From Geosiphon pyriformis uo1 (Eukaryota > Fungi > Glomeromycota): 37,386 nucleotides of DNA. Location of the stretch: NCBI GenBank assembly GCA_016748015.1, contig JAAOMT010000612.1:1-37386 (forward strand), in the 5' to 3' direction. The translations under genes and the position numbers were made by a program. This document shows positions 5,191-36,999 of this stretch, in pieces (position 1 is the stretch's first letter; each line of letters opens with the position of its first letter). The notes under the pieces were generated by a model. It searched no databases and had not been told where the DNA came from. It saw nothing but the letters and a program-made list of their open reading frames with translations.

Positions 5191-6043
5191 TGTTACTTAT
5201 AGAATATAGGAAAGATACTAACATAAATTAGCCAATCAAAAGTAGGCACAGTAAATATGAAATTCCAAATTTTTTTTTAAAAGAATTGCAGAATTCCAGG
5301 AATTTCAGAATTCTCATACATGAATTACAGGATTCCAGAATTCCAGGATTCCTCTCAAAAGAAATTGCAAAATTCCAGGAATTTCAGAATTTTTGGTGTG
5401 AAAAATTAAGAAATTGAGAAATCTCAATTATGTATATATAGTAATAGCATTAGAAGTAAAAAAAACAGATCTTCCAGTTAGATTTCATCTAAGCAACCTT
5501 CCAATTCACAAATATCAATAAATAATTATTTGCTATCTCAATCTACTCTCCACTATCAACACTTCATGTTGATAGTAATTGATACTTAACCATGCTAGAA
5601 CAATAGCTCTTGATCATGGCTATTGATGGGATACTAACTTGCAATTGCTTTTACTTATTTCTTTATTTTCTTTTATTTTTTTGTATTTCTTTTGTTATTT
5701 CTTTGGTTTTACTAAATTGATTAAGGATTAAGTGCTGAGATACAGATATTATAGGAACTGGTAAAAGACCCATAAAACAAGGGTAGAACACTCATAGATT
5801 TGAGGATAGCTTATCAGAAGAATTACCAGTTACCATGCTGAGAAAAAAATTTGACGAAACTGTGGTTTCAGGAAGCTACAGATAAAACCATCAATTAAAA
5901 TCTCTGTCCATTATACAAAGAACTTCACAACAAAACCTTTAAATAAACCACACCTGCAGATATTATCAATGTCAACAAATCAATTAAGCACCAAGTTATG
6001 GGTTTGTTATTTGTTTTGAAACCCCAAATAATCACCTGTAATA
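5191..6043 (+). repeat. E1 5' LTR
   Basis: Colinear with 14282-15134. TATA-like TATATATA at 5433-5440, AATAAA at 5517-5522, hairpin at 5552-5576. Confidence 0.97.
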
Positions 6044-6045
6044 TT

Positions 6046-6061
6046 TAGTGCTCTCTGTGAG
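6046..6061 (+). promoter_or_regulatory. E1 primer binding site (TaGTGCTCTCTGTGAG)
   Basis: Lies 2 nt after the LTR and matches the E3 PBS TGGTaCTCTCTGTGAA. The consensus TGGTGCTCTCTGTGA is complementary to a tRNA CCA end; the tRNA is not identified. Confidence 0.8.
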
Positions 6062-6105: not shown

Positions 6106-9100
6106 GTGGCAGAATCAAAAAAGATAGGAGCAAACCATTTAGGATTTGCTAAATTCTTGTTCCAACAATACAGCCAATAATTAGAACTAAACAATAACCA
6201 CTTTCTAGCAGAATTCATCTTTAACTTCTACATTAACAATAAAATCACAGACTGCTTAGGAAAAACAGTTAACATTGAATCTGCAAGGGAAAATTTCTAT
6301 ACAGAATTATTTCAACATACCAGCTTACCAAGAAACTACAGTTTCACATCAAATCATCAGAGAAATTAATCAAACTATTGAAAGATATAAACAACAACAA
6401 TTCCCCATTACCTATGCAAACAAAGGCAAAGGAAAGTTACAAACACCAGCAGTAACACCAAAACAAATACAACTATCTACTTGGAAGAAAACTAGAGTTG
6501 AATCACCAACAAACTCATTATACCATTATACATCCGGAAGCACCATCAACATCCCATCAACAAGCACATCCACATTACACACAACATCAACATTTGGACA
6601 ACTCCTATTTCAAAGTAAACAAAAGAAAGCAGAATTATTAGGAACCTACAGTAATTATTTTAAAGAATTTAAATTGTAATCATTAACACCATTAGAATTC
6701 TGATCACTATTACCTTAACCAGATTTTGGAAACACAAGTCCCTGGGAGATAATGGAATCAAAAGAGAAAAAAAAAGAAGAAACTGAAGATCAGGAATTTA
6801 CTTATCAGAACTTGATTACAGTAAATCCAGAAATTGAAACCCCAAATATTCAAATCCAGCAAACTCCGAATAATCTAAACCCTGAGTTAATTAATCAGGG
6901 AAACTTACCTTCAGTAATCATGATCAATCAGCCACCAATTGTACCAATACTGGAACCAATTCCACTACAACCACTGCAGCAACCTATTTAATCACTGCTC
7001 CAACAACTACAACAACTGATTCAACCATCACAACAACAACTTCAACAACCACTACAACAATAAATTATAGCACCAATGGCATATATTTCTATTGCCAAAC
7101 TTGAAAAATTTACCAGCAAAGAGAATGATGCCCAAGTGTGGCTAAACGATATGGAAAAAGCCATCACAGCCAATGAATGAGATGATACTAGAGCCATGCA
7201 GGCCATTCCCTATTTTCTTTAAGATATTGCCAATTCATGGTATTAAAGCTTGGTTAACAAATCCCAAGATTTCAATGCATTCAAACTTGTATTCCTACAA
7301 TACTTTAGCAATAATAATAGTATTAATTGGCTAGTAAACACTTTTACTACTATCAAACAAGAGAAAAATGAAGCAGTCACTACATACTTAGGATGCTTTC
7401 ATAGAAATCTACACCAAATACAAGCAACTCAAGCTGATTATTTTACAGCACCACAAATCCTAAATCAATTCATCAGAAGCCTGCACAATAGCATCCTCCA
7501 ATGCATATGCTCAATGCATCCAGCAGATCTTTAAGTTGCAGTTACCAATGTCAGAAATTTTGAAGCAGCTGAACTCGAAGCTAACCATGCCTAAGCCATA
7601 AATCTAGTAATGAATAGATCATCTGAATTGGATTCCAAATTGAAACAATTCAATAATTTCATTAACCAGAAGCTTGAAAAGTACTTAGCTGACAATCATG
7701 CAATTTATTAACCACCCCAATGACACAATAATTTAGGAATCACAAATCACCCACAAAATCAGTTACATTCCTCATCATCATCCAATCAGTCATGGCAGCA
7801 AGAGACATATATTTGCCACTACTGTGGTAAACAAGGACATTTGAGAATTGATTATCAGTTAAGAATAAAAAACCAATGATCAGAAAATCAATATTGAAAC
7901 CCCAATTACAGGTTTTCAACTCTGAGTTATCAATCAAATACAAAAATATATCAACCAAATTACATACCTATGACACAGCTGCAAATTTATCAACCACCAA
8001 TTTATCAGCCAACAGCACTCATCATTTATCACTCACAGCCCCAACTCATTTATCAGCTGCAGCCTCAGGTAATTTATTAGCCCTAATAAATTCAAACACT
8101 GCTGCAGAACTTATCTCAAAACAGAACACAAGGCCAAGACTGACACAACAAAGCTGGAGATCATTGATGATAGTCTATCAACCAATCTCCAGTTCCATGG
8201 CACAATCATCAGGATCTTAACAATGGAATTTGAACACTGAGAACTCTCAAAACCCAAATGTCCAACACTATTTAAGTCTTCTAGTTACCTTAAAAAACGC
8301 CTCATCTAACAACTGGGAACTCAACCAACACAAACCACTTATCAGCAATATACTTCCAGCCACCATAACCAATAACGAATCATTAGCCACAATTTTTCTA
8401 TTTGAATTAAAAAAAATCACACCAGTTCCATTATTCAGTAGAGCTGGTCTTGACATCAAACCAATCATCACTATGTACACTAATGCAAAGGTTGATGGTC
8501 ATACCATTAAACTGATATTAGACAGTGGATCAACTAATAGCATCATTACATGACAACTCATAAACCAATTAGATTGCCAAGTTGATTACACTGCTAGCAC
8601 TCACATAATCACCACTGATGGGGCAACCAAAACTCCTATTGGCAAAATTAATGACTTTCTTTTTGAAGTTAATGGCATCATCATCCCCATCAAAGTCCTA
8701 GTGATGAAAGCAATTCAATATTAGACATTAGTAAGAAATGACTGGTTATCTAAAACCAATATCATACTTAACTAAACAATACAGGAGTTCTAACTCAGCC
8801 AAAATAACCAACACACATGAGTATCTGTCATGTGTGAACACTTCAAATCTATCACCATGTCATTAAACCCATTTATCAAATTTGAAGAAGAAAAAGAGAA
8901 ACCTATTTGGAAAGCCTATCAAGTCTCTTGGGCCAATGAAGACCACAATGAGCTGCCACCAATACTTTCTTGAGATGATAATGAAAAAGAGAAGAAAAAG
9001 AAAAAACTTATCTGAAGTACCAACCAAGCCTGGGAAATTGACAATAACCAGAAAGAACTAATAAATTAGGAGTGAAAAGAAAATAAAAAGAGAAAAGGAA

Positions 9101-12100
9101 AGAAGAAGGAAGAAGAACCAACACCTAACAGTACCACTACTTATAATTTCTACACTACACCCCAACAATCCACTTATTGCTGCCCAAAACTGGTATGCAT
9201 TGATTGTGACAAGAAATTGTCGTCAATGGGCACTTGTTGTAATGATGATAAGGAGTACACTTCAGCAACCAAATTCTACTGCTGTTCATGTGTTATTAAA
9301 TACTTCAGAAGACCAAAACAAGTTGAGAAATGGGACAATAAACTATGCTTGGCTTGTAGAAAAACTCTTTCAGATGAAGGAATGTGGAACAACATTCCTA
9401 GATGAGGAAGAACATACAATGAAATATGCCAGTATACAATTCTAATCAATGACTGGGTATGCAAGAACACATTAATCGATGACACTTAGAAACAAGCATT
9501 GTGACAATTGAAAGAATATCCCCATGACAAACATGAACTTTGGAGAATAGCATATGTGAAAACAGAAAGTGCAACAACTAGCAAACTCCTAGAAATCAAA
9601 AACAACCTTCTGTTTCTTTCTGAACCCGAATATGTCCAAACCTTCAACATCTTTGGCAACATTGAAGATGACCCAGAAGAATTCCATGAACATTACCAGC
9701 ATTTAGCACCCACTAGGGAAGAACAGAAGCAGCAGTTAGAACAATTGAATACTCAATTATGTCAACATTGCTTAATCCCATGTGACTTTCAATATTGTAA
9801 TAAGTGTGACTTCATTTACAATCCACCAACATGCATGATCTACATGATCCCAGAAGAAAACAAACCAATCAGCAACTGGGTATTGGAATCAGAATCAATT
9901 TTCAATCCTGATTCAAACTCCAACAACAATGACGATGACAAAAATAATGGTTCTAGCTCTGTGCAAAATGGCAACAATTTTAACTCAGATTCAAACTCCA
10001 ATTCAAAACCCAAACAATATATTGCACTTCCTAACTTTACCAAGGAACAAAAAACTTAAATGGTTTAGCGATAATAGTGAGGGTATCATACCAGAACATG
10101 CACATGATACTGATGTAGAGTTTGATCTAAGATATCCAGGAAAAGATGTCATAAAATTGGAACTCTATTTGTGCACCTGTATTAATCTCAAAATAGCATT
10201 AAAAATTCTAGTGACAACAATGGTTCAGTTAGCATTTAAGAGTAGCTTAGCAAAAAAGAGAATCAACATTAAAGGAGAAATAATTGATATAGGATACATA
10301 GGAAATATTATTGCTATGCTACAAAATGACTCAGAAAAAGCATATACTATAGATTCAAATGAAAAAATAGCATAGGCAATATTTTTATCTTTGGTAAAAA
10401 TAGCTCAGTTAGTGTCAATAGAAAACAGGGAAGAATTAGGAATTACTGTTAGAGGGATACAGGGATTCAGATCAATGGATAGAATAGATGTATCAGTTAA
10501 TATAACAGAAAAAGAGGTTATTGACAAAGAAGAAATTATCTCAATCTGTTAATCAATTTCTATTCCATCATATGACCAGTATATGTTAACCATAAAAAAA
10601 AAAGTAAAGAATCAAGCTCAGTTGTTTAAAGCAGAAGCCACTCTTTGTGAATCAGGAAAAATTGGACTCACTAATCTTTACATATCAGCCAAAAGCCCCA
10701 AAAACATCAAAATTCTTATCTACAACACAACAGGAAGTGTTATTGAAATACAAAAGGAAACCATTATTGGATATTTAACCACCAAAGTTGAGGATCAACT
10801 ACCAAACCACATTCCAGATTTTTCACAGCTTTGCAGATATGTGGACATTACATCACAAACTATCTATAAACAAAGTAAATATTATCTGCTCTAACCAGAA
10901 CAATTGAAACAAATAAACATGGGAAATCTAGACCCACTCCAACAGGTGCCAACTCAAGATATTACTTAACAATTTAAATAATATCTTTGCCAGTAAAAAT
11001 GAACTTGGCAGAACTAATATAATTCAGCACCAGATTAAGACTGGAGATACAATGCCAATAAAACAAAGAGCATATAGAGTACCACTAGCTAGTCATAAGA
11101 TTATTCATCAAGAAATCAATCAGATGCTTGACAACAGGCTAATTCAGTTATCAATGAGTCTATGGTCATTACCAGTGGTACTAGTCTGGAAAAAAAATAG
11201 AAAGATCCATTTCTGTGTGGATTATTGAAAACTAATGAAATAACCAAAGATGATAGCTATCCAACTCCAAAAATCCAAGAACTATTTAATGCTTTTAGAG
11301 GAAATAAATGGTTCTCAATACTGGATTTAGATAGTAATTATTGGCAAGTAACCATGGATCTAGCTGACAAAAAAAAACAGCATTTATTACAAGAGAAGAA
11401 AATTTCGAATTTGAAGTCATGTCATTTGGATTAATGAATACACCAGCCACATTCTAACAGCTAATAGAAATTGTGTACACTAGACTACTATGGAAGTCAG
11501 TAATCATATACTTGAATGACACCAATGTGTTCTCAAGAACATTCAATAATCATTTTCACCATCTACAACAAGTATTTGAAAGACTCAGACAAGCAAGACT
11601 GAAACTAAATGCCAATAAATGCTTCTTTGGAAAAACAGAACTAAAGTTCTTGGGACATGTTGTGAGCAAAGACAACATCAAAACAGATTCAGACAAGATT
11701 GAAGTTGTTAAGAACTTTCCAGTACCAAACAATCTTACTGAACTAAGAACATTCTTGGAATTTGCAAGGTATTATTGCTGTTTTATCAAAGACTTTTCTA
11801 AACTGGCTCAGCCATTTTATCATTTACAAACTAAAAATGTAAAGTATAAATAAACAGGAGTTCAACAAGAAGCATTTGACACACTGAGAAGAAAGCTTAT
11901 TTAAGCTCTAGTGTTGATGTATCCAGATCACAACAAACCATTTATTATCACTACTGATGCATCAGGCCAAGCATTGAGAGCAGTATTATCTTAGAAAAGA
12001 CCAAACAGACGAGAACATCTAGTAGTGTATGCCAGTAGAAGCTTAAGTCCAGCTGAAAAAAACTATGGAATACTAGCATTAGAACACTTAGCAATTTATT

Positions 12101-12312
12101 GAACAGTCATAAAATGGAAAAAATACCTGAATCAAAAATTTAAAATATATATGGATTACAAAAGATTGATTTTAATCCAGAAGCAAAAATTCGGAGATGA
12201 TTGCCATGCCAAATAGAAAATAGAACTTTCACTATTTAATTATATAGTACATTATAAAAAAGGAAAAAACAATGGAAATGCTGGCAGATTGTTGTGAATA
12301 AGACAAATCTAA
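6106..12312 (+). pseudogene. gag-pol: E1 ORF1 polyprotein (N-extension, Gag CA, CCHC, protease, Cys-rich domain, dUTPase, RT, RNase H), disrupted
   Basis: CA MAYISIAKLEKF at 7076; knuckle CHYCGKQGHLRIDY ~7814; LILDSG ~8512; dUTPase ~10060-10490; YLND (from YLDD) 11509-11520; RNase H TDAS ~11953. Many transition-derived stops and some frameshifts. Confidence 0.93.
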
Positions 12313-13568: not shown

Positions 13569-13598
13569 AATTGAACAATAAAAAGAGTATATAAAGAC

Positions 13599-14267
13599 AT
13601 GGTAAACATGACGGAAGACTTCAGAAAAATGAAAATTACCGACAACATTTACTTACTAGCACAACAACTCTTTCAATTGATTCAACAACAAGAAATGGAA
13701 ATCACAATCAATCAACAAACTATCAAATACACAAACACCAGAAAAAGACCCTGGGATAAAGTATGGAGGAAAACAGAAAACACTGTTAACAAAATAATGG
13801 CAAAAATGAAACTGGTAATAGAAACACAACCCAAAGTTATTCAATATCAAAAGTTGAATATAGAAACCTGGAATTGGTGAACACAACAATTTCCAAGAAA
13901 CTTTTGTTACTTTTACTTGAAACAATATGTAAATATTCAGAATCTATATACAGATAAAACAAAATAATTATTTAACACAACAATACTACAACAACTGGAA
14001 CAATTTGTGAAGAAAAACAATTTAATTACACAAGCAAGAGCTATTTATTGGCTATATACCAGATTTCAAGATCGGCCAGAAATCTTGCTTAACACTAAAA
14101 TGAATACTGTTACTGTCAACCAAATAGAAAAATTGACCAACACCCAATTTGAAGAATTACAAAACAAAATAACACAAATAATTTTCAGAAAAAAAGTTCA
14201 AGAACTATTTAAGAATGGAGAATTAGAGCTAGAAAATTTGAGAGATCTCAATGGAGCTCAATATTAA
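13599..14267 (+). pseudogene. E1 ORF3, ~220-aa accessory protein of unknown function
   Basis: Track ORFs 13599-13880 and 14007-14267 share one frame, split by two stops. Homologous to ORF3 of E3 and E2. Confidence 0.8.
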
Positions 14268-14278
14268 AAAAGAAGAAA
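14266..14278 (+). promoter_or_regulatory. E1 polypurine tract
   Basis: AAAAAAGAAGAAA ending 3 nt before the 3' LTR. Confidence 0.8.
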
Positions 14279-14281
14279 TAA

Positions 14282-15134
14282 TGTTACTCATAGAATATAA
14301 GAAAGATATTAGCATAAATTAGCCAATTAGAAGTAGGCACAATAAATGTAGAATTCCAGAATTCCTTTTAGAGAAATTGCAGAATTCCAAAAATTTCAGG
14401 ATTCTTATACATGAATTACAGGATTCCAGAATTCCAGAATTTTTCTCAAAAGAAATTGCAGGATTCCAGAAATTCCAAGATTTTTGGTGTGAAGAATTGA
14501 GGAATTGAGGAATCTCAATTATGTATATATAGTGGTAGTATTAAAAGTAGAAAAAACAGACCTTCCAGTTAGATTTTATCTAAGCAACCTTCCAATTCAC
14601 AAATATCAATAAATAATTATTTACTATCTCAATCCACTCTTCATTATTAACACTTTATGTTGATAGTAATTGATACTTAACCACACTGGAACAATAGCTC
14701 TTGATTATGACTATTGATGGGATATTAACTTGCAATTGCTTTTACTTATTTCTTTATTTTCTTTTATTTTTTTGTATTTTTTTTGTTATTTTTTTGGTTT
14801 TACTAAATTGATTAAGGATTAAGCACTAAGATACAAACATCATAGGGACTGGTAAAAGACCTGTAAAACAAAGGTAGAACACTCATAGATTTGAGAATAG
14901 CTTACCAGAAGGATTACCAGTTACCATGCTGAGAAAAAAATTTGACGAAACTGTGGTTTCAGGAAGCTACAGATAAAATCATCAATTAAAATCTCTGTCT
15001 ATTATACAAAGAACTCTGCAACAAAACCTTCAGATAAATCACACCTGCAGATATTATCAATGTCAACAAATCAATTAAGCACCAAGTTACGGGTTTGTTA
15101 TTTGCTTTGAAACCTCAAATAATCACCTGTAATA
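14282..15134 (+). repeat. E1 3' LTR
   Basis: 853-bp copy of 5191-6043, differing almost only by transitions. Confidence 0.97.
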
Positions 15135-15138
15135 TCAT

Positions 15139-16392: not shown

Positions 16393-17359
16393 TGTTACCA
16401 GTAGAATTTTAGCTATTAATTAACATGAAATTACCCTTATAATTCCTATAATTAATCAGTATATTAATCATTTCAAATTATTATTTATTATTTAATTAAT
16501 TATTACATATCACGATTCAATTAAAATAATCTAATTAGTATAACAGAAAGTAGGATGATTAAATTACACAATACTCTGAACTTTGTAACATTCTAAAAAT
16601 TCGCCAAAATTTACAGAAATTCGCCGAAATTATAAATAGTTCACCCAAATTAATCAATAGTTTAGCAAAATAACTTGTAGTTCATCAAAATGTATCTTTA
16701 ATTCACCGAAAATTGAGCAAAAAGAAAAAGTGCAAGTTCATAGACTAGTACTACAACAAATTGTATAAAAGAAGAGCTTTTTTCTTCAAGAAAATATATC
16801 TTACTTTAGATTTTATCACTAGAACCATTCCTATACACACAAAAAGAAATAAATATCAAATAATTCGAAAAACCAAATTCTTTAATTATTACATTTGAAA
16901 AATTCCCAAAACCCAATTAACATTTCGAAATTGATTAGCTAGCAATTTCAGTAAACTGTTAGTGACTCCAGGCCTGGATAGAAAACGTTTCCCTTGACAG
17001 AATTCTATTTCTTTTACATTTCTTTTATTTTCTAGTATTTTTTTATTACAATCATTAGAGTAGCCTACAGACAAAATTCCTGTAGAAGAGTTGACTTTCA
17101 CAGCAAAGTAACTACACATTTTTAGTGAGCTTCCAGATGAGCAATTCCTGAGAAAGAGTTGACATTTACTACAATGTAACTACATAAAGTAACTGGCAAG
17201 AAATTGGTCATTCCACTTATAAGCCCAGCAGTTCAAATTATAAAAGATAATTTGAAGATAAATTCAGTTATTGGGTTCAACTACTTTTAGAAAACGTGAA
17301 TTTGCAACCAACAGACAGTTACAATATTCAAGAAAAGAGACCAAAAACCTCTGGTAACA
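16393..17359 (+). repeat. E2 5' LTR
   Basis: 9-bp terminal inverted repeat. TATAAAA at 16764-16770, AATAAA at 16848-16853. Confidence 0.98.
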
Positions 17360-17361
17360 TT

Positions 17362-17372
17362 TGGTGCTATCT
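17362..17372 (+). promoter_or_regulatory. E2 primer binding site (TGGTGCTATCT)
   Basis: TGG lies 2 nt after the LTR. One transition from TGGTGCCATCT, which as I recall complements the yeast tRNA-His 3' end; assignment tentative. Confidence 0.75.
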
Positions 17373-17404
17373 TACAAAAATAACACAGCAACAACAAATT
17401 CAAA

Positions 17405-20400
17405 GTGGTGACCACACCAGATGCAACAACTCTAGAGTATTACCAGTCAATTTACACCCACTGCAAGCAAAGATTCAACATCCCAGACGGAATTGAAGTC
17501 ATCAAGAAATCAGTATACCAATATATTAAAAATCGCATCAACAATTATCTCTTTGGAAATTACAACATCTCAGAAGTTAGAGGCAACTTTTACAATAATT
17601 TAATGCACTATTTACAGTTGAGAACTGAAGACCTTAACAATGAAACACTTGTCACTTACTTTCAAAAACTTAATTTTAACATTATCAAGTACTGTGAAGA
17701 AACATATCCAGTACAATCTCAATATTTTATTGATTTTGAATCAGAAACACAAACAAACAACAAAGACAAACAGAAATTGAAGCAATACTCAAGAACCACC
17801 CCAAATACTCCAATACTACCAAAAACAACTGCCAAACACTTGCAAACACCTAAACAAAAAACCAGTGTTAAATTACCACTTTTTATTACACCAATTCTAA
17901 TTTCACTTGTTCAACCACAAATACCAAGTTCACCACTTAAATGTTTCTCCAGACCAGAAGATTATCAGTCACCTAGAAATCCTACTCAACAGCAGGAACC
18001 AATATCAACAAGTGCCAATATTATTGATTACTTACAAGAAAACGAAAGTAATTATTCAGAAAGTCCAGAAAGTGAAGAAACTGAATCAGAACAAGAAGAA
18101 ACTACAGAAAACGAAAAAGTAATGGCAACTGCTTATATTGCAAAAATTCCAGAATTTACTGGTGAAGATAATGATACCAGTCCTCAAGAATGGCTTGACA
18201 AAGTTCAAAAAGCAGGAGATGCAAATAGTTGGATTGCAACAAAAATGCTCAAAGCAATCTCATATTTTCTCCAAGGAACTGTAGGAGAATAGTTTGAAAA
18301 CTTAGAAGAACCATTTGAAAACTGGCAAGCATTTAAAGATGCTTTTCTACAACAATTCACCAACAACAACACTTCTATCACTCTTAGAAACCGCTTTCGC
18401 AATATCAAGCAAGAAACATCTGAAACTGTTATGACCTATCTTGGAAGATTCAACAAACTTCTCAGACGAATTCAACAATTGGAAACCAATGACTACTATT
18501 CCAATGCTCAAATTCTGGATCAGTTTATAGCAGGGTTAAAAGACAAACTGATTAAAAAAGTCTGTCCACATGCTCTAGCAGACTTAGCAACTGCTATTAA
18601 ACATGCAAAGAATTATGAAATAGCTATGGAAGAAGCAAACCACACCAAACTTGTTAACTTAGCTATTGAAGAAACCAGCTCAGCAGCTGAAAAAAAGATA
18701 GACCAACTCACAAAAAAGGTTGAAAGCTATTTTACAAACCAGCAACAACAGCAACAACAACCACAAAAATATCAATCACCACAGCGATACAACCAAAACA
18801 ACTTTGGACCACCATCCAACCACCAACCTCAAAATTGTCACTATTGTGGAATTCCAGAACACTGGAAACGAGATTGTAGGAAACTACAAAGAGACCAACA
18901 AAACAGGAGTAATCAACGTCACTCTTCATCACAACAATTTTATTACCAATCCCTACCACCAACTTATTATTCACCAAGACCACAAATTCAAAACAGCTAT
19001 TATCAACCAGTTCCACAACCAATTCAACAACAATATCAGCAACTTTTACCAATTCAGCAATATCAGACACCATCCACTCAACAATATCAAGTACCAGCAA
19101 AAAGATTGGTTCACCATAACCAATTCACACCTCAAAATCAATTTCAGAATAACAACAACAGAATTAATCCAAATAACCAGTTGGTTTCCCAAAATTCTGG
19201 TCAGCAAAGACCCAATCACTATCACACTTAACCCAGTTATCTTACAATGCTGGAAGATTCAGATTTTCAACAAACTGCACTTTTTTTTTTTTTTTTTTCA
19301 ACACCAAGATCAAACCCTTTCAATCACACCATTCCACCAGCTCAAATTGCCCAAAATGCCAATCTGTCAGATATATTTCCATTTGAATTTAAGGCAAATG
19401 AATCACCATTCTTGCTTAGTAACACAGCAGTCAATGAACAAAAAGCAATCACTGCTATGTACATAGAAGCTACAGTAGAAGGAAAATCTATTTACTTAAT
19501 CCTAGATAGTGGATTTGCTGGAAGCATTATCACTTACCAGTTGATACAACAACTTAAACGAAATGTAGACAGACCAGCTCAAACAGTTATTGTCACCGCT
19601 AATGATATAAAAAAGACTCCAGTAGAAGAAATTAATGATTTCCTCTTTACAATTGATGGAATTACCATTCCAGTTAAAGTTTTTGTCATGGATGCACCCC
19701 AATACTAAGCCCTAGTTGGAAATGATTGGCTTCTCAAGGCCAATGCAAACCTGAACTGGATAACTCAAGAACTTAAAATCTCATACCAAAGACAATATAA
19801 CATAGTACTTGCAATCTGTGGTACCTTTAATAAATGATCAGAAAAAGCTCCAGTATTTAAATTTGAAGAAGGAAAGGAAATGCCACTTACTGAAACCTAC
19901 ATAGCTCTTGGATCACCATCTAATTGGGCTGAGGAAACAGAACAAGAGATTTTTGAAGAATCAAGAGAATGAAAGAAAGTTAGATATTCCACACCAGAAC
20001 CACGAAAAAAACCACCATACATTCCACTAAAATACAAAGATTGCAAAAAGAAGCTTTCATCTATGGGAGCTTGTATTTCTCCAGAAGAGGAATACGAAAC
20101 TCGCACTTGCTACTTCTACAAGGCATGCCATAGAGAACGATTTGGATCCCCAAAGAGAAGTGAAAAATGGGACAACACACTTTGTTTTACATGTGGAGAT
20201 ATGTTACCAGAAGAATGCAACTGGATTGATGTTGCAATGAGAGGAAGAGTATGTGATTAAACTTGTCAATATGCTCTATTAATTTCGGAAAAAGTGAGAA
20301 GAGGAACACCATTTGATGCAGCATACAACAGTGCTCTCAACAAACTATACCATTACTCACATGATGCTGAAATGATTTTTAACTTAGCAATGGCTTTAAT

Positions 20401-23046
20401 TAATGGAGCCACCCAGGAAGATGTCCACTAAATGAAGATGTCCACCAAATGAAAGAAGCTGAATATATTGAGTATACCATGGAACTAGCCAGATTTGATT
20501 ATGAAGATGAAGTAGAAACCTATTACCAAATTGCAAGCCACACATATCTGACCAAAGAAGCTCAAATTCAACGATTAGAGCAAATGAACATTCAATTGTG
20601 TAAAGAATGTGTTATGCCTTGTGATGACCAATGGTGTTTAGAATATTATGCTCTTAACATTCTTTTGCCAGATGAAAATGATGAAAATAAAATCGAATTT
20701 GGAGTATCTGAATTAGCAGAAGAACTACCAACCACTTCCATCTATCTTCTTGAAAAGCAACCACTTCTACAACTTAAATATTTTGACAACCATGGCCAAG
20801 GAATCAGACCAGAAAAAGCACACGAAATTGATGCCGGATATGACCTAAAATATCCAGGAAAAAATACTTTGGTTTTCCAACCAAAGTCCTTGACAAAAAT
20901 CAATCTCAAAATTGCTCTTGAAATACCACCAGGAGCAATGGTTCAAATTGCCTCCAGATCATCATTGGCAAGTAAAAAAATTAATATTAAAGGAGGAGTT
21001 ATAGATACAAGATACACTAGAGACATTATCATTATGTTACAAAATAAGACAGACAAATCATTTAAAATTGAACATGCTGAAAAAATTGCTCAAGCAATTT
21101 ACTTACCTTTAATCAACATTTCGGGTTTACAATCAGTAAACAACAGAGAACAATTGGGAAAAAGTAAAAGAGGAACTCAAGGTTTTGGTTCAACTGGACA
21201 ATTTACAGTTCCAGTAAATATAGCTCTTAATACACAAAATAAATCTCACCAGATTCTTCAACTTCTCCAGCCAATCACCATTTCACCTTTTGGAAAACAT
21301 TACGAAATTTACACTTGCTCAAAACCCACCACTACACAACAAATCTTTGAATTCAACGAACAAATCTGTTTGAAGCATGAAATCTCAATTCCAAACATTT
21401 ATATTCCCAAAGGAATAAAAAAATTTCGAGTTATATTTTACAACCCTAATAATTACCCTATTGTCTTATTAAACAAATTAGAAATTGGAATCATACACAG
21501 CAATATTTTTCAAGATAAAAACCCTCAAATTGTTTCTAATTTCATCGAAATTGTAAAGCACACTTTACTCCCAAATCCAAATATTATTCCCACTACTGAA
21601 AACTACCACTTTCTGGAAGAAAAACTCTCTCGAATTAACATGGTCCCTTAGAACCTCAACAACAAAGACAATTAAAACAATTAATAGCTGAATTTGCAGA
21701 TATATTTGCAAAAGACAACAATGACCTGGGAAAAACGGATATTGTTCAACATCAGATCCATACAGGAGATGCTCCTCCAAAATGTTAGCAAGCTTACAGA
21801 GTGCCACCAGCCAGCCACCAATTCATCAGAGAAGAAGTCCAGAGAATGCTTAATAATGGATTAATTCAACCATCAAGAAGTCTTTGGGCCTCACCAGTAG
21901 TCCTTATCAAAAAAAAAAAATAGAAAAATCAGATTTTGTGTTGACTATTGCCAACTGAACAGTATAACAATTGGAGATGCCTACCCTCTTCCAAGAATTG
22001 ATGACATGTTAGATGCTTTAGGAAAAGCCAAGTTTTTCTCAACTTTGGACTTAGAAAGTGGATACTGACAAGTCGAAATGGACCCAAAAGACCGACCCAA
22101 AACAGCATTTATTACCCAGGAAGAAAACTATGAGTTCAATGTTATGCCTTTTGGACTCTGCAATGCACCAGCAACATTCCAGCGACTCATGAATGTTGTA
22201 TATGAAGGACTCTTGTAGCAATCAGTAGTTGTCTATCTTGATGACACCAATATATACTCACTAAACTTTGAGACTCATCTTATTTACCTGTGAGAAGTTT
22301 TTCAATGATTATGGAAAGCAGGATTGAAGTTAAACATTGAAAAATGTTACTTTGGAAAAACAAGCTTAATCTTCTTCGGACACATTGTTAGCAAAAATAG
22401 AGTCAAACCAAATTCTGGAACAATCAGTGCTATCAAAAACTTTTAAACTTTCAGAAATACCACAGAACTACGAAGATTTGTAGGATTAGCCTCTTATTAT
22501 CGAAAATTTATAAAAGAATTCTCAAAAATTGCCAAACCATTCAATTATCTTACCAATAAAAACGTGCCATACAAATGGACTGAAGAACAACAAAAAGCTT
22601 TTGAAACTCTCAAAACAAAATTGACAACAGCCCCAGTTCTTGCTTACCCAGACTTCAACAAACAGTTTCAATTAGCCACTAATGCTTCACACATAGCATT
22701 TGGTGCTATCTTATCACAATTGAATGAAAATGGCCAGGAACGAGTTATTGTCTATGCCAGCAGAACACTTAAACCAACAGAACTCAAATATGGCTCAATT
22801 GAATTGGAAGCCACTGCAGTTATCTGGGCTCTTAAACATTTTCAACAATATCTGAAGAATAGAAAAGAATTTGACATAATAACAGACAACATTGGTCTCA
22901 AATGGCTCAATAAAAAGAAAACTGAACAAAGCGCCAAACAGTCTTGATGGAATGACTTCCTAGCAGACTACAGATACATTGTACACTACAAACCAGAAAA
23001 ACTACATACCAATGTTGATAGCCTCTCAAGAATGAGACAATATTAA
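17405..23046 (+). pseudogene. gag-pol: E2 ORF1 polyprotein (N-extension, Gag CA, CCHC, protease, Cys-rich domain, dUTPase, RT, RNase H), disrupted
   Basis: CA MATAYIAKIPEF at 18122; CHYCGIPEHWKRDC 18836-18877; LILDSG ~19496; YLDD 22234-22245; RNase H ends ...DSLSRMRQY*. Gag through dUTPase is one frame once the 17-bp duplication at 20417-20450 is removed. Confidence 0.95.
20770..21198 (+). CDS. dut: dUTPase domain within E2 ORF1 (homotrimeric type)
   Basis: All five motifs in order: DAGYDL, ASRSSLA, GGVIDTRYT, IAQAI, RGTQGFGSTG. Confidence 0.93.
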
Positions 23047-24499: not shown

Positions 24500-24642
24500 A
24501 TTTTACAATAATTCTCTAATAAAAACACAAAAACAAAAATAGTAAATAATTACAGAAACACCCAAACCCAAAAACAAATAAAAACCCCATATCCAAAAAT
24601 AATTTTCTTTATTTTCTCTTTTCATAATTAGTCAATTTTATC

Positions 24643-25318
24643 ATGGTTATTTCCCGAAATATTCAACAAATATCCCAAAAGTTAATGTTAGCCTTGAAAA
24701 CACTTCCTGACTTATTCATAATGATTAATGGAAGTCAAATTAATTACATTCAGAAAGAAACCACAGCTCCAGTAGCAAATCATTCACAGAACTATCACCC
24801 CTATAAAAGAAAAACAAGAAGCCACTCTGAAAATAGGTTACCAAGACTTTTGAAACAAGCACTAGAAAAAAATCTTTTAATTGCCCCTATGGACATTCAC
24901 CAAATGCTACAATGCAACAAAAACTTCTACTACTTCTTAACAAACAAAACAATGAATACACCCCTATCTATAAATATTTTCACATTGAAAAGACACTTTA
25001 TGAACGAAAACTGGAACTTGAAACAACAAATATCACTCCTGAAGCTATACAAAAACAAATTCATAATAAATTCAAAACAGCAGCTGGACTAATGAACACT
25101 CACTACAAACTTAGAGCAGCTTTTAGACTCTATGATTTGTTTAATACTTGTGAAAATGTTTTACAGAATCCAATACTGTATCCAATGAAAGTTTAATACA
25201 TTGGCAAACTCACAGAACTGAAATTTTAACAATTCTCAGACCAGATTACGTCAATTATTTTGGATCACTATCTTAATATTACAGATAGTGCTTGGACTTT
25301 GATGGAGCTCAGTCTTGA
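24643..25318 (+). pseudogene. E2 ORF3, accessory protein of unknown function (frameshifted)
   Basis: Track ORFs 24643-25092 and 24912-25196. RAAFRLYDLF...IGKLTELKF aligns with E1 RAIYWLYTRF...IEKLTNTQF. Ends DFDGAQS*. Confidence 0.75.
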
Positions 25319-25326
25319 GAAGAAGA
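25317..25326 (+). promoter_or_regulatory. E2 polypurine tract
   Basis: GAGAAGAAGA ending 3 nt before the 3' LTR. Confidence 0.75.
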
Positions 25327-25329
25327 TTA

Positions 25330-26319
25330 TGTTACCAGTAGAATTTTAGCTATTAATTAACATGAAATTACCTTTATAATTCCTATAATTAATCAGTATA
25401 TTAATCATTTCAAATTATCATTTATTATTTAATCAATTATTACATATCACGATTCAATTAAAATAATCTAATTAGTATAACAGAAAGTAGGATGATCAAA
25501 TTACACAATACTCTGAACTTTGTAACATTCTAAAAATTCGCCGAAATTTACAGAAATTCGCCGAAATTTATAAGAAATTCGCCGAAATTATGAATAGTTC
25601 ACCCAAATTAATCAATAGTTTAGCAAAATAACTTGTAGTTCATCAAAATGTATCTTTAGTTCACCGAAAATTGAGCAAAAAGAAAAAGTGCAAGTTCATA
25701 AACTAGTACTACAACAAGTTATATAAAAGAAGAGCTTTTTTCTTCAAGAAAATATATCTTACTTTAGATTTTATCACTAGAACCATTCCTACATACACAA
25801 AAAGAAATAAATATCAAATAATTCGAAAAACCAAATTTTTTAATTATTACATTTGAAAAATTCCCAAAACCCAACTAACATTTCGAAATTGATTAGCTAC
25901 CAATTTCAGTAAACTGTTAGTGACTCCAGGTCTGGATAGAAAACGTTTCCCTTGACAGAATTCTATTTCTTTTACATTTTTTTTATTTTCTGGTATTTTT
26001 TTATTACAATCATTAGGGTAGCCTACAGACAAAATTCCTGTAGAAGAGTTGACTTTTACAGCAAAGTAACTACACATTTTTAGTGAGTTTCTAGATGAGC
26101 AATTTCTGAGAAAAAGTTGACATTTACTACAACATAACTACATAAAGTAACTGGCAAGGAATTGGCCATTCCACTTATAAACCCAGCAGTTCAAATTATA
26201 GGAGATAATTTGAAGATAAATTCAGTTATTAGAGGTTCAACTACTTCTAGAAAACATGAATTTGCAACCAACAGACAGTTACAATATTCAAGAAAAGAGA
26301 CCAAAAACCTCCAATAACA
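25330..26319 (+). repeat. E2 3' LTR
   Basis: Copy of 16393-17359 with one extra ~21-bp tandem unit and a 2-bp indel. Confidence 0.98.
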
Positions 26320-26667: not shown

Positions 26668-27593
26668 TGTTACAGGTGATTCTTTGGGTATTGAGTGAAT
26701 AACAAACCCATAACTTGGTGCTTAAAGCAATGGGTGATGATGATAATCTGAAGGTATTTTATCTGAAGGTTTTCCAATTGAGTTTTTTGTATAATATACA
26801 GAGATTCAATGATAACAGTTTATCAGTAGTTTCTTGAAACTATAGTTTTGTCAATTGTTTGCTCAGCTTAATGGTTGATGATTCTTCTGATATGATATCT
26901 TTTGTAAGTGTATACCAGTACTGTTTCCTAATGTTAGTTCCTCTGTAAGTTCTCCAAGAGTAAATATTGTTTAAGCAAGTTTATTCCTCTGTAAGTTCTC
27001 CAAGAATAAGTATTGTTTAAGTAAGTTTTATTCCTCTGTAAGTCCTCCAAGAGTAAATCCTTTAATCAAGTTAGTAGACAACAAAGAAAATAAAGAAAAG
27101 ATAAAAGAGAAAATAAGAAATAAGCCAAGGCAATTTGCAAGTTAGTATCCTGTCAATAGTCATGATCAAGAGCTATTGTTCCAGTATAGTTAAGTATTAG
27201 TTACTATCAACATGAAGTGTTAATAGTGAAGAATAAATTTGATATAATGAATAATTATTTATTTGAGGATTGTGGTAACTAAGCTAAAAATTCTTGGTGT
27301 CTTTTTTTTTTTTCTGCTTTTAACACTACTGCTATATATACATATTTGAGATTCCTTAATTTTTCAATTCTTTGTGATAGGAATTCTGGAATTCTTGGAA
27401 TTCTGCAATTCCTGATGAGAAAAATCCTGGAATTCTGGAATCTTGCGATTCTTTGTTAGAAAATTCTGAAATTCCTGGAATCCTGCAATTCTTCTGAGAA
27501 GAATTCTGAAATTTTACATTTACTACGTCTATTTCTGATTGGCTAATATCTACTTGCTAATAATAATATACTTCCTATATTCTATGAGTAACA
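26668..27593 (-). repeat. E3 3' LTR
   Basis: TGTTAC...GTAACA ends; copy of 36074-36999. Confidence 0.97.
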
Positions 27594-27596
27594 TTA

Positions 27597-27608
27597 TTCC
27601 CTCTTTTT
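27597..27608 (-). promoter_or_regulatory. E3 polypurine tract
   Basis: AAAAAGAGGGAA on the minus strand, ending 3 nt before the LTR. Confidence 0.85.
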
Positions 27609-28266
27609 AATATTGAGCTCTATCGAAATCTAACTCTTTTAATTCCCTCTCTTGAATTATTTCTTGAACTTCTTTTTCGAGTATTACTTGTGTTATTTGA
27701 GTTTGTAGTTCTTCAAATTGGGCATTGGTCATTTTTCTTAATTGATTACTCGTAACTGTATCTATTGCTGTGTTAAGTAAGATTTCTGGTCAGTCTTAAA
27801 ATCCCATATATAGCCAGTAAATGGCTTAAGCTTGTGTGATCAGATTGTTCTTTCCCACAAATTGTTTCAATTGTCTTAGTATTGTTGTGTCAAATAACCA
27901 TTTTGTTTTGTTGGTGTACAAATTCTGGATATTTACATATTGTTCCAAGTAAAAATGACAATAGTTTTTCAGAAATTGTTGCATCCACCAAGTCCAAGTT
28001 TCTCCAATAAGTTCTTGGTGTAATTTGACTATTTGTTGTTCTTTCATGGCCAATTTTACCTTGGTCATGATTTTATTAACAACATTTTCAAGTTTTCTCT
28101 GTACTTTGTGTTGTGGTATTCTTGCAGTACTTTTGTATCGAATAGTTTGTTGATTGATTGTAATTTCTATCTTCTGGTGTTGGATTAATTGAAAGATTTG
28201 TTGTGCTAATAAATGGATGTTGTCGGTAATTTTTATTTTTCTGCGTTTTTCTATCATGTCAACTAT
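27607..28266 (-). pseudogene. E3 ORF3, accessory protein of unknown function
   Basis: Track ORF 27826-28257 continues in frame through stops to ...ELDFDRAQY*. Clearly homologous to E1 ORF3. Confidence 0.8.
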
Positions 28267-29735: not shown

Positions 29736-32700
29736 TTAGATTTGTCTTATTCGTAACAAACTGTCAGCATTTCCATTGTTTTTTCCTTTCTTATAGTGTA
29801 TAGTATATAGTGTAAGTATATTGTGAGAGTGCCATTTTCCATCTGGATTGGCAACTGTCATCAAATTCTTGCTTTTGAAGTAATATTAACCCTTTATGAT
29901 CCGTGTATATATCAAACTTTTGGCTCAAGTATTTGTTCCACTTCATGACTGCCCAATAGATTGCTAAATGTTCTAGTTCTGGTGTTCCATAGTTCTTTTC
30001 AGCTGGTGTTAGACCTCAGCTGACATATGCTACTGGATGTTCTCTGCCATCTGGTCCCTTCTGAGATAGTACTGCTCCCAATGCTTGGCTTAATGCATTG
30101 GTGGTAATAATGAATGGTTTGTTGTGATCTGGGTAGATCAGTATTGGAGCTTGAATGAGCTTTTTTCAGAATATCAAAAGCTTTTTGTTGACTTTCTGTT
30201 CATTCATATTTTGTATTCTTGGTTTGCAGATTATTGAGTGGTTGAGCTATCTTTGAAAAGTTCTTTATAAAGCATCAATAATAGCTTGCAAATCCCAAGA
30301 ATGATTTCAATTCAGTCACATTGGTTGGTACTGGAAAGTTCTTTACTATCTCTATTTTTTCTGAATCTATTTTGATGCTGTCTTTGCTGACTATATATTC
30401 CAAGAATTTTAGTTCTGTCTTGCCAAAGAAGCACTTTGTTGTATTTAACTTTAGTTCTGCTCTTCTTAGTCTTTTGAACACTTGTTGAAGATGATAAAGA
30501 TGATCATCAAATGTTTTTAAGAATACATTGGTGTCATCCAAGTATACAACTACTGATTTCCACAATAAGCCAGTATAAACAATTTCCATTAGTCATTAGA
30601 AAATGGCTGGGGCATTGGTTAAGCTGAAGGGCATTACTTCAAATTCAAAATTCCCTTTTCTAGTGGTGAATGCCGTCTTCTCCTTGTTGGCTGGATCCAT
30701 GGCTACTTGCCAGTAACCACTGTTTAAGTCTAATGTTGAAAACCATTTGTTTCCACTGAAAGCGTCGAACAATTCTTGTATTCTTGGGGTTAGATAGCTG
30801 TCTCCACGAGTTACACTATTGAGTTTCTTATAGTCCACACAAAATTGGATTTTTCTATTCTTCTTCCGGATGAGTACCACTAGTGATGATCATGGGCTCA
30901 TTGATGATTGAATTAGCCCATTGTTAAGCATTCGGTTTATCTCTTGACAAATGATCTCATGGCTAGCTAGTAGTACTCTGTATGCTCTTTGTTTAATTGG
31001 CATTGCATCTCCAGTCTTGATTTGATGCTGGATGATGTCAGTTCGGCCAAATTCATTTTCATTGACAAAAATGTCATTGAAATTGTTGAGCAACATATTG
31101 AGCTGCATACATTGGAGTGGGTCTAAATTTCCCATGTTCATTTGTTCTAATTGCTCTGGTTGGAGCAAATAACATTTGCTTTGTCCATATATTGTTTGTG
31201 ATGTGATATTAACATATTCACAAAGCTGTAGAAAGTCCAGAATGGTGCTTGGTGATTGATCCTCTATTTCAGTGCTTAAGTATCCAATGGTGGTTCCGGC
31301 TGGTATTACTATGACATTTCCTGTGTTATTATAGATGGGAATTTTGATGTGGCTGTAATTTTTGGCTGGTATATGGAGATTGATGAGTCTAATCTTTTCT
31401 GATTCACAAAAGGTTGGTTTTGCTTCAAAAATCTGATTCTGTTCTTTTACTTCCCACTTTATCCCTACTATGTACTGGCCATATGATGGAATGGAAATTG
31501 TTTGACCTGTTGAGATAATTTTTTCTTGGTCAACTATTTCTTCTTCTGCCATATTTATTAATACATCTATTCTACCTGTTGATCCAAATCTCTGTATTTC
31601 TTTTGCTGTTATTCCTAATTCCTCCTTATTTCCCACTGATATTAACTGCACTATTTTCTCCAGAGACAAAAATATTGCCTGTGCTATCTTTTTGTTTGGC
31701 TCTATGATATAAGTCTTTTCAGAGTAGTTTTGTAGCATAGCAATGATATTTTCTACATATCCTGTGTCAATTATTCCTCCTCTTATATTAATCCCTCTTT
31801 TCGCTAAACTACTCTTAAATGCTAGTTGAACCATTGTTGTTGCTGAGATTTCTAATGCTACTTTCAGATTAATACAAGTGTGTGAATGTGGTTCCAATTT
31901 AATGGCATCTTTTCCTGGATACCTTAGATCAAACCCAGCATCAGTATTATGTGTATGTTCTGACATAATATTTTCATTATTGTCACTATACTATTTTAAC
32001 TCCTGTTCTTTGAAAAGATCTGACAGTGCAATGTATTGTTCATATTTTGGGTCGAAGTTTGAATCTGAGTTGGAATTATTGTCATTATTATCACTAATTT
32101 GAATGAAACTAGAACTAGTGTTTTTGTCATCATCATTGTCGGAGTTTGAATTGGGATTGAATGGTGATTTCAATTCAGATGTGCAGCTGCTGATTGGTTT
32201 GATTTCCTCTGGGATTGTATAGATCATGTATGATAGTGGATCATAAATGAGGTCACACTTATTACAATATTGGAAGTCATAGAGAATCAAACAGTGGTCA
32301 CATAATTGGGTGTTTAGTTGTTCTAAATGCTGCTCCTACTCTTCTCTTGTAAGTGCCAAATTTTGGTAGTATTTGTGAAAATCTTCTGGACCTGTTTTTT
32401 TATCCATGAAAGCATCTGAGTTAGGAATATGAATGATATCGACCAGTTCTGGGGGATTGTTCTTAATTTCCAGTATTTCACTGGGTGTAGCACCTTCTAC
32501 TTTGGCATTGGCCATTTGCTAAATCTTCTCTTCATTGTGGGGGTAACCATCTAAATGATTGAGTGTTCAGTGCTATGCTGCTGTAATCGGGGTACTATGA
32601 CTCATCCAGTTATTAATAAAAATCATGTATTGGCATAAAGTGTTACATATTCCTCCTTGACCAGGAATGTCATTTCACATTCCTTTGTTGAGCAGTTGTT

Positions 32701-35700: not shown

Positions 35701-36012
35701 TGCATAGGTAATGGGAAATTGTTGTTGCGTGTATTTTTTAATGGTTTGATTAATTTTTCTGATGATTGGGGCGAAACTGTGATTTCTTGGTAAGCTGGTG
35801 TGTTGAAATAATTCTGTATAGAAATTTTCTCTTGCTGACTCGATATTAACGGTTCTTTCTAAACAGTCTGTGATTTTATTGTTGACATAATAGTTAAAGG
35901 CTGATTTGGCTGGGTAGTGATTACTGTTTAATTCTAATTGTTGGCTGTATTGTTGAAACAAGGATTTTGCAAATCCTAAGTGGTTGGCTTCTATAATTTC
36001 TGATTCTGCCAC
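29736..36012 (-). pseudogene. gag-pol: E3 ORF1 polyprotein (N-extension, Gag, protease, Cys-rich domain, dUTPase, RT, RNase H), disrupted
   Basis: GTG at 36012; CA MVYTSIAKLENF at 34995; LILNSS (from DSG) ~33540; dUTPase DAGFDL..GGIIDTGY..FGSTG ~31570-31990; YLDD ~30533-30544; ends RIRQI*. Confidence 0.94.
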
Positions 36013-36055
36013 GTTTGAATAATGTTGTTGGTGCTGGTTCTCTGTAAAATTATAC

Positions 36056-36071
36056 TTCACAGAGAGTACCA
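36056..36071 (-). promoter_or_regulatory. E3 primer binding site
   Basis: TGGTACTCTCTGTGAA lying 2 nt inside the 5' LTR. Confidence 0.85.
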
Positions 36072-36073
36072 AA

Positions 36074-36999
36074 TGTTACAGGTGATTCTTTGGATGTCGA
36101 GTGAATAACAAACCTGTAACTTGGTGCTCAAAGTGATAGGTGACGATGATAATCTGAAGGTATTTTATCTGAAAATTTTCCAATTGAGTTCTTTGTATAA
36201 TGAACAGAGATTCAATGATAACAGTTTATTAGTAGTTTCCTGAAACCGTAGTTTTGTCAATTGCTTGCTCAGCTTGATAGTTGATGATTCTCCTGGTACA
36301 ATATCCTTCATAAGTGTATATTAGTGCTGTTTCCTGATGTTAGTTCCTCCATAAGTCTTTCAAGAATAAGTATTGTTTAAGCAAGTTTATTCCTCCATAA
36401 TTTCTCCAAGAGTAAGTATTGTTTAAGTAAGTTTTATTCTTTTGTAAGTCCTCCAAAAATAAATCCTTTAATCAAGTTAATAGACAACAAAAAAAATAAA
36501 GAAAAGATAAAAGAGAAAATAAGAAATAAGCCAAGACGATTTGCAAGTTAATATCCCATCAATAGCTGTGATCAAGAGCTATTGTTCCAGTATGGTTAAG
36601 TATCAGTTACTATTAACACTTCATGTTGATAGTAAAGAATGAATTTGATATAATAAATAATTATTTATTTAAGAATTGTGGTAACTAAGCTAAGGATTTT
36701 TGGTGTCTCTTTTTTTTTTCTGCTCCTAACACTACTGCTATATATACATATTTGAGATTCTTCAATTCTTCAATTCCTTACAACAGGAATCCTGAAATTC
36801 CTGGAATCCTGCAATTTCTGATGAGAGGAATCCTGGAATTCTGGAATCCTGCAATTTCTCACCAGAGAATCCTGAAATTCCTGGAATTCTGCAATTTTTC
36901 TGAGAGGAATCCTAGAATTTCACATTTACTACATCTACTTCTGATTGGCTAATATCTACTTGCTAATAATAATTTACTTCTTATATTCTATGAATAACA
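36074..36999 (-). repeat. E3 5' LTR
   Basis: 926-bp copy of 26668-27593. Confidence 0.97.

Follow-up and report, generated by a model that had tools for sequence, protein, structure and literature searches.

ORF3 of Geosiphon pyriformis LTR retrotransposons, a selected third gene unlike env that may encode a DNA-binding regulator

Three decayed retrotransposons and their ORF3 copies

Here we describe ORF3, a gene that lies between the integrase and the polypurine tract (PPT) of LTR retrotransposons in the fungus Geosiphon pyriformis. The window, by which we mean the whole stretch of DNA analysed (37,386 nucleotides of contig JAAOMT010000612.1), is occupied by three decayed LTR retrotransposons, and every copy of ORF3 within it is broken. 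The main features are the following:

5191-6042 and 14282-15135, forward strand: LTRs of element 1, 91% identical to each other; the 3' LTR starts with TG at 14282
16393-17359 and 25330-26319, forward strand: LTRs of element 2, 94% identical
26668-27593 and 36073-36999, reverse strand: LTRs of element 3, 88% identical
13572-13574, forward strand: TGA closing the integrase frame, an arrangement of elements 1 and 3, with ORF3 next in the same frame a few codons on
13599-14267, forward strand: ORF3 of element 1 (subfamily A), 222 codons plus TAA, between integrase and PPT, with internal stops at 13878 and 13965
14266-14281, forward strand: PPT of element 1, overlapped by the ORF3 stop
24500-24642, forward strand: non-coding spacer between integrase and ORF3 of element 2, A-rich and then T-rich
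24643-25349, forward strand: ORF3 of element 2 (subfamily B), with a frameshift near 24894 and two stops; it crosses the PPT and stops at 25347-25349, inside the 3' LTR that starts at 25330
27607-28266, reverse strand: ORF3 of element 3 (subfamily A), with three internal stops

By Pfam, the carrier elements encode Gag, protease, dUTPase, reverse transcriptase (RT), RNase H and integrase in Ty3/gypsy order. Their TG...CA LTRs, PPT and Gag-PR-RT-RH-IN arrangement are those of Ty3/gypsy elements (Metaviridae), and they depart from that pattern in that the integrase lies outside the Pol polyprotein in all four elements that could be read, the fourth being a metagenome contig (L001) described below. 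Elements 1 and 3 share about 77% DNA identity and belong to one family (subfamily A), and element 2 is a second family (subfamily B), so the window shows two families and not the three originally claimed. ORF3 identity between the two is about 22-28%.

All three elements have a dUTPase between protease and RT with a Cys-rich segment before it (20404-21651, 9848-10375 and 30890-31990). They also have in common a long frame upstream of the capsid domain (17384-18292, with counterparts at 6260-6679 and 35635-36075), which has no Pfam match and is either an N-terminal extension of Gag or a further gene. The primer-binding sites that follow the 5' LTRs begin TTTGGT or TTTAGT (6043-6055, 17360-17372 and 36060-36072). 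At the start of the contig (1-3165), near-identical repeats surround two N gaps and probably reflect either a recent duplication in tandem or an artefact of assembly.

The original prediction described a sense ORF of about 220 codons between integrase and PPT in all three elements. Its position and orientation hold, and a profile search locates the counterparts at 24643-25346 (forward) and 28233-27580 (reverse); the open frame does not hold, since stops interrupt all three copies and a frameshift also interrupts that of element 2. The element 1 frame contains 2 stops against a mean of 18.0 in shuffled sequences, and none of 5000 shuffles had 2 or fewer. The motif R-A-x2-(R/W)-L-Y-x2-F...K-(L/M)-T-x3-F, found at 14037-14150, is also present in the other two elements, as had been noted from the sequence, with its Arg codon a stop in element 3. 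A database gene model of subfamily A (P0040) has its start 7 codons ahead of 13599. The integrase stop of elements 1 and 3 is followed by ORF3 in frame, with no spacer between them. ORF3 is a real gene, and it is dead at 13599-14267.

Purifying selection on ORF3

Between elements 1 and 3, the dN/dS of ORF3 is 0.26 (bootstrap 0.16-0.40), and the same comparison gives 0.26 for the integrase core and 0.15 for RT. The ORF3 region read in its other five frames gives 0.46-1.52, and the LTR read as six frames gives 0.63-0.80. The figure of 0.26 is likely an overestimate, because both copies will also have decayed after insertion. Transversions in ORF3 stand at 0.060 for 0-fold sites versus 0.263 for 4-fold sites (p=0.0002), a contrast not seen when either of the remaining sense frames is used; of three LTR frames read as controls, one showed a significant contrast of reversed sign. 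ORF3 evolved under purifying selection equal to that on the integrase core, and the absence of such selection, named in the original prediction as a refuting outcome, did not arise.

The ORF3 family and its distribution

Searches for homologues returned 86 and 74 matches, and a joint profile returned 112 representatives. The named homologues were Geosiphon pyriformis gene models in 85 of 86 cases (the remaining one being the window's own), 74 of 74 and 32 of 33. Ten of the 112 profile representatives were looked up, namely eight Geosiphon models and two metagenome proteins, P0202 and P0205, both of them intact. There are at least five Geosiphon subfamilies, which together with the two metagenome relatives are 22-43% identical pairwise in global alignment; the profiles of subfamilies A and B align over 181 columns with a probability of 93%. 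Many diverged copies of the ORF3 region are also found in the DNA contigs of run X1.

For the annotation of the genome it matters that well over a hundred G. pyriformis models named 'hypothetical protein' are in fact decayed ORF3; such models often contain what look like false introns or are merged with adjacent repeats.

Searches by tblastn matched nothing in phages and plasmids, and the viral contigs searched held no relative. In the Atlas, P0205 lies nearest to a 98-member family from Mucoromycota (score 0.94, 176 of 256 features), a lead only, as its recognition falls below the tool's mark; P0002 fell among unnamed clusters only, with low recognition. A closterovirus coat match for P0205 (Atlas 0.93, 156 features, 1 of 30) was set aside, the fold searches giving it no support. 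We found no description of the family in the literature searched. The ORF3 protein belongs to no known family, and the group is known here mainly from Geosiphon.

Protein features and predicted structure

Hydropathy windows reveal no signal peptide or transmembrane stretch in any of ten ORF3 proteins, which bears out the original reading. The highest 19-residue hydropathy among the ten is 0.27-1.29; all ten lack a furin-type R-x-K/R-R site and have 0-3 Cys each. Charge is distributed unevenly: in 13 of 13 proteins the last 25 residues are net negative and the remainder net positive, and for the two intact metagenome relatives the balance over the whole protein is acidic (pI 5.4 and 5.9).

An AlphaFold2 model built from 46 sequences reached a pLDDT of 85.4 and a pTM of 0.68; an earlier fold from subfamily B alone (pLDDT 46.6) was set aside. 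In the model, a helix at 7-20 and a hairpin at 25-38 lead into a disordered basic linker near 38-52, after which come helices at 54-66, 82-95, 100-119, 126-141, 146-160, 164-168 and 177-182 and a long one at 185-220. In outline, the prediction is of an N-terminal helix with a beta-hairpin, joined by the basic linker to a core of six helices, and of a long C-terminal helix that ends in an acidic tail. Residues invariant over the six subfamily columns include Y102, G108, G142, N145, F160, L167 and G181. The segment G142-x-x-N145 connects helices 126-141 and 146-160 and is followed by A-x-x-R/Q-L/I-Y/H-x-x-F, and positions 146-151 vary by subfamily. We take this helix-G-x-x-N-helix arrangement to be a helix-turn-helix layout.

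Fold searches with the model gave no confident relative. Foldseek returned nothing at E<=0.001 against the PDB and viral models, and two runs of VIA gave no Z of 5 or more, the best (Z 4.8) being a designed protein; these searches used the full-length model, so that a known fold for the core is still conceivable. Weaker VIA matches included Spo0J (Z 4.3, rmsd 5.0, 89 aligned), sigma F (Z 3.8, rmsd 2.4, 57 aligned), RptR (Z 3.6) and ParB (Z 3.4, rmsd 3.1, 59 aligned), with scores tied with those of unrelated helical proteins. No known fusogen fold is among the matches listed by Foldseek (PDB and viral models) or VIA.

Scans of Pfam, PHROGs and NCBIfam yielded scattered weak matches only. Glypican (4 of 46 members) and FtsQ (10 of 46), both among the Pfam matches listed, and Importin-5, for which E rose from 0.002 to 0.23 with a wider profile, were judged to be chance matches of amphipathic helices. 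The N-terminal domain of DUF1016 appears among the Pfam matches listed for 3 of 46 members (E 0.02-0.04); its hhalign score against ORF3 is 15.1 versus a shuffled mean of 12-14 and maximum of 20.5, with a probability of 0.5-2%, and the Y-x-x-I-G and G-K turn columns do line up in this weak alignment. A complex prediction with two copies of an intact relative scored 0.01. Neither a fusogen nor a host gene was matched in these searches, and selection, hydropathy and the helical model agree with the original view of ORF3 as a soluble accessory factor and not an env.

The end of ORF3 and the motif beside the polypurine tract

Near the 3' end of the gene lies a short stretch of DNA that is shared by all four elements:

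14253-14267, forward strand: DNA motif adjoining the PPT of element 1, with core GGAGCTCA, retained in all four elements whatever the frame of ORF3
25292-25318, forward strand: 'GAQ-stop' peptide of element 2, in a frame different from its ORF3 and behind two stops

ORF3 had been described as ending in D(F/L)x(G/R)AQx* over the PPT. This is so in elements 1 and 3, and the ending is the in-frame end of ORF3 in subfamilies A, D and E, matched by 60 stored proteins; it is not so in element 2, where the peptide lies in the other frame and ORF3 ends in the LTR. A tail of the type E-L-S/N-L-E-x-x-I-M-L is found instead in 37 proteins, those of subfamily B and the metagenome, and no protein has both endings. 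In the subfamily B models and the two metagenome relatives, ORF3 crosses the PPT into the LTR and reads the motif DNA in another frame, and in L001 the frame with GAQ starts only behind a stop that precedes it by three codons. The two tail types are split by one branch (100/99) whether tails are included or cut, in a midpoint-rooted tree whose long branches meet there and from which one tail was only partly cut.

Because element 2 carries it outside the ORF3 frame, 'D-x-x-GAQ-x-stop' is mainly a DNA motif, and since the shared unit is DNA beside the PPT, it would most simply be a cis-acting sequence, possibly for plus-strand priming or integration. Together, motif and PPT occupy 14253-14281, 25304-25329 and 27594-27621 in the window and 3091-3116 in L001, where the motif merges into a perfect inverted repeat of 5 bp around a 2-nt loop.

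A separate integrase ORF

In the carrier elements, translation of Pol would end before the integrase is reached:

12310-12312, forward strand: stop ending Pol after RNase H in element 1; integrase is a separate ORF with its ATG at 12343
23044-23046: Pol-ending stop after RNase H in element 2
29736-29738: Pol-ending stop after RNase H in element 3
772-799 of L001: Pol stop to integrase start

In each element of the window, and likewise in L001, the stop holds this position directly after RNase H. In L001, a near-intact metagenome contig, RT-RNase H ends at the stop and an integrase, itself interrupted once by a stop, begins at an ATG 24 nt later; a T-rich spacer of 325 nt then leads to an open ORF3 of 230 codons, the PPT and the LTR. 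The integrase is in the frame of Pol in L001 and shifted from it in the window elements, and none of the four has an ATGA-type overlap between RNase H stop and integrase start. Because the stop is shared by L001 and the three window elements, it co-occurs with ORF3 in four of the four that could be read, the co-occurrence that the original prediction had proposed to look for.

On a second metagenome contig, L002, an integrase end and a TATA-bearing spacer come before ORF3, from which an unrelated ORF of 128 codons (425-811) separates them. The extra ORF has no Pfam match and, on comparison, is not a paralogue of ORF3.

LTR repeats and a candidate internal promoter

The LTRs carry tandem repeats that differ between families:

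14350-14477, forward strand: 40-bp tandem repeat in the 3' LTR of element 1, rich in a GGA(A/T)TCC-type motif
25534-25589, forward strand: tandem repeat of a 20-bp unit in the LTR of element 2, with a motif unlike that of elements 1 and 3

GGA(A/T)TCC-type motifs number 8-12 per LTR in elements 1 and 3 versus 1-2 in the others. The repeat motifs are family-specific, those of elements 1 and 3, of element 2 and of L001 (TTGCCCT) all being different. LTR tandem repeats are common in elements that encode no protein to bind them; in element 1, the 40-bp repeat is a candidate target of ORF3. A further tandem repeat, of 46 bp, lies in the 3' half of the element 3 LTRs (26938-27058 and 36344-36462) and is absent from those of element 1.

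In L001, TTGCCCT occurs five times against 0.35 expected. Three of the occurrences precede the TATA box of the LTR. The other two belong to the spacer, which has a TATA box of its own 50-70 nt after them and 126 nt ahead of the ORF3 start. When motifs were taken from the LTR only, none of 1000 spacer shuffles reached the observed count, for a sharing that had been noticed by eye before it was tested. The same comparison is negative in elements 1, 2 and 3, of which 1 and 3 have no spacer, so that the signature is present in one of four elements. It hints that the L001 spacer holds an internal promoter for ORF3.

Proposed function of ORF3 and alternatives

Our preferred reading, to which we give somewhat less than an even chance, is that ORF3 is a DNA-binding trans-regulator that activates its own LTR, working like the Tas protein of foamy viruses. 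The protein would bind the motif of its own LTR and thereby activate transcription or shield the element from silencing. The helix-G-x-x-N-helix turn may act as a helix-turn-helix-like unit that reads DNA, the basic linker may be a nuclear or DNA-contact signal, and the acidic tail could serve as an activation surface. In some lineages, such as that of L001, ORF3 would be made from the internal promoter, and in subfamily A by stop and restart behind the integrase; protein and LTR motif would diverge together. That Spo0J, sigma F and ParB, all DNA-binding helical domains, are among the fold matches is weakly suggestive of such a regulator. A small helical basic protein of this kind could equally bind RNA or integrase. 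The original prediction had offered three functions, and the evidence favours the DNA-binding one; for a translational transactivator there is the co-occurrence with the split integrase and no Pfam match, and the silencing suppressor is taken up below.

An RNA- or ribosome-binding factor through which ribosomes would resume translation of a polycistronic RNA at its integrase ORF and at ORF3, as the TAV protein of CaMV activates reinitiation on polycistronic RNA (PMC5734791), is in our judgement unlikely. It would suit a Pol that stops after RNase H and an integrase with its own start in all four ORF3 elements, as well as the layout of elements 1 and 3, where no more than a few codons of the same frame part ORF3 from the integrase stop. 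However, no caulimovirus protein is among the 25 Pfam families listed of 55 for the 46 members, and there is none for the intact proteins; moreover, co-occurrence of ORF3 and split integrase within one clade is expected from shared descent. The gap after RNase H is also short, 24-30 nt in L001 and element 1, and short stop-to-start distances can permit restart without a viral factor. The L001 spacer, for its part, resembles a promoter and not a restart site.

Slightly harder to credit is an integrase adaptor, with ORF3 carrying the separately made integrase to the particle, the nucleus or chromatin. An integrase outside Pol would have to reach the particle in some other way, its neighbour in all four elements is ORF3, and the long amphipathic last helix and small N-terminal domain of the model could be binding surfaces. 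Against this, ORF3 diverges far faster than its supposed partner (about 28-31% identity, versus 52-59% for integrase, in elements 1, 2 and L001), which is easier to square with a partner that changes, be it a host factor or a DNA motif, than with an enzyme that is conserved.

Fast divergence is compatible with an arms race too, and ORF3 might suppress small-RNA silencing or methylation by the host without sequence-specific DNA binding. Transitions make up 701 of the 790 variant places over the ORF3 region in run X1, and copies so riddled with them would therefore point to strong host pressure. No known suppressor family is among the matches listed, however, and no feature suggests binding of double-stranded RNA, so we hold this to be improbable.

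It is very improbable that ORF3 is a captured fragment of a host gene that hitchhikes with no service to the element. The Mucoromycota cluster nearest to P0205 might fit a host origin; but the selection on ORF3, in the element's own frame, equals that on the integrase core, and the gene has kept its location across subfamilies only 22-43% identical. A degenerate env or other membrane or fusion protein, favoured by env position and sense orientation, is largely refuted and scarcely credible, given the low hydropathy, the lack of signal-like stretches and R-x-K/R-R sites, the 0-3 Cys in all ten proteins and an all-helical, soluble model.

Significance and comparison with known systems

Most extra ORFs of LTR retrotransposons are known without an assigned function. 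Because the unclassified ORF3 family has a confident model, intact members and, in L001, a candidate DNA target, the function of non-env third genes becomes directly testable. LTR elements have expanded strongly in Geosiphonaceae (PMC11952901), an account whose available text makes no mention of ORF3 that we could find. If ORF3 proved to activate in a sequence-specific way or to counter silencing, it would reveal the means by which these expanded elements regulate themselves, and it would provide a small, programmable-looking fungal regulator.

By its position, its retention across copies and the selection on it, ORF3 fits the broad class of sense additional ORFs between pol and the 3' LTR. 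That class is described for plant LTR retrotransposons (aORF-3S, 'env-like'; PMC7264820), which ORF3 resembles in position, sense orientation, presence in family copies and pol-like conservation; it differs in having no transmembrane segment, in being fungal and unrelated in sequence, and in the separate integrase ORF. Closer in genome plan are the dUTPase-bearing LTR elements of bdelloid rotifers, whose non-env ORF3s encode GDSL esterases, DEDDy exonucleases or membrane proteins (PMC5408684). They share with the Geosiphon elements a gypsy-type, dUTPase-bearing genome and a non-env ORF3, in some cases of 210-230 aa, whereas no enzyme family was matched by the Geosiphon protein, which also lacks a membrane segment. 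An 'add. ORF' without known function is also drawn for some fungal Gypsy elements, some of them with dUTPase (PMC2864245), a likeness by description only.

The parallels of mechanism lie further afield. Foamy virus Tas/Bel1 is a poorly conserved 3' accessory protein of 209-308 aa with an acidic activation region; the response elements to which it binds are found in the LTR and also in an internal promoter, and they differ between viruses (PMC3798896). ORF3 is like it in size, poor conservation, 3' position and acidic region, and in the non-canonical expression of Pol in the same genome; it is unlike it in that Tas belongs to a vertebrate retrovirus with env, while for ORF3 the DNA binding and promoter are inferred, the promoter signature being present in one of four elements. 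No homology to Tas appears among the Pfam matches listed for the 46 members or for the intact proteins. The anti-silencing VANC proteins of Arabidopsis VANDAL transposons target tandem repeats that differ between related elements (PMC5735166). Here too an element encodes an extra protein, and family-specific tandem-repeat motifs lie in its non-coding parts; VANDALs, however, are plant DNA transposons with no homology found to ORF3, and the likeness is one of analogy. It is conceivable, if rather doubtful, that this fungal gypsy lineage has an env-less version of the complex-retrovirus plan, with Gag-Pol, a separate integrase and a sequence-specific transactivator of a new family, a parallel to foamy virus Tas that runs from an internal promoter and evolves together with the family-specific repeats of the LTR. 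ORF3 itself would work like Tas or VANC while belonging to neither family.
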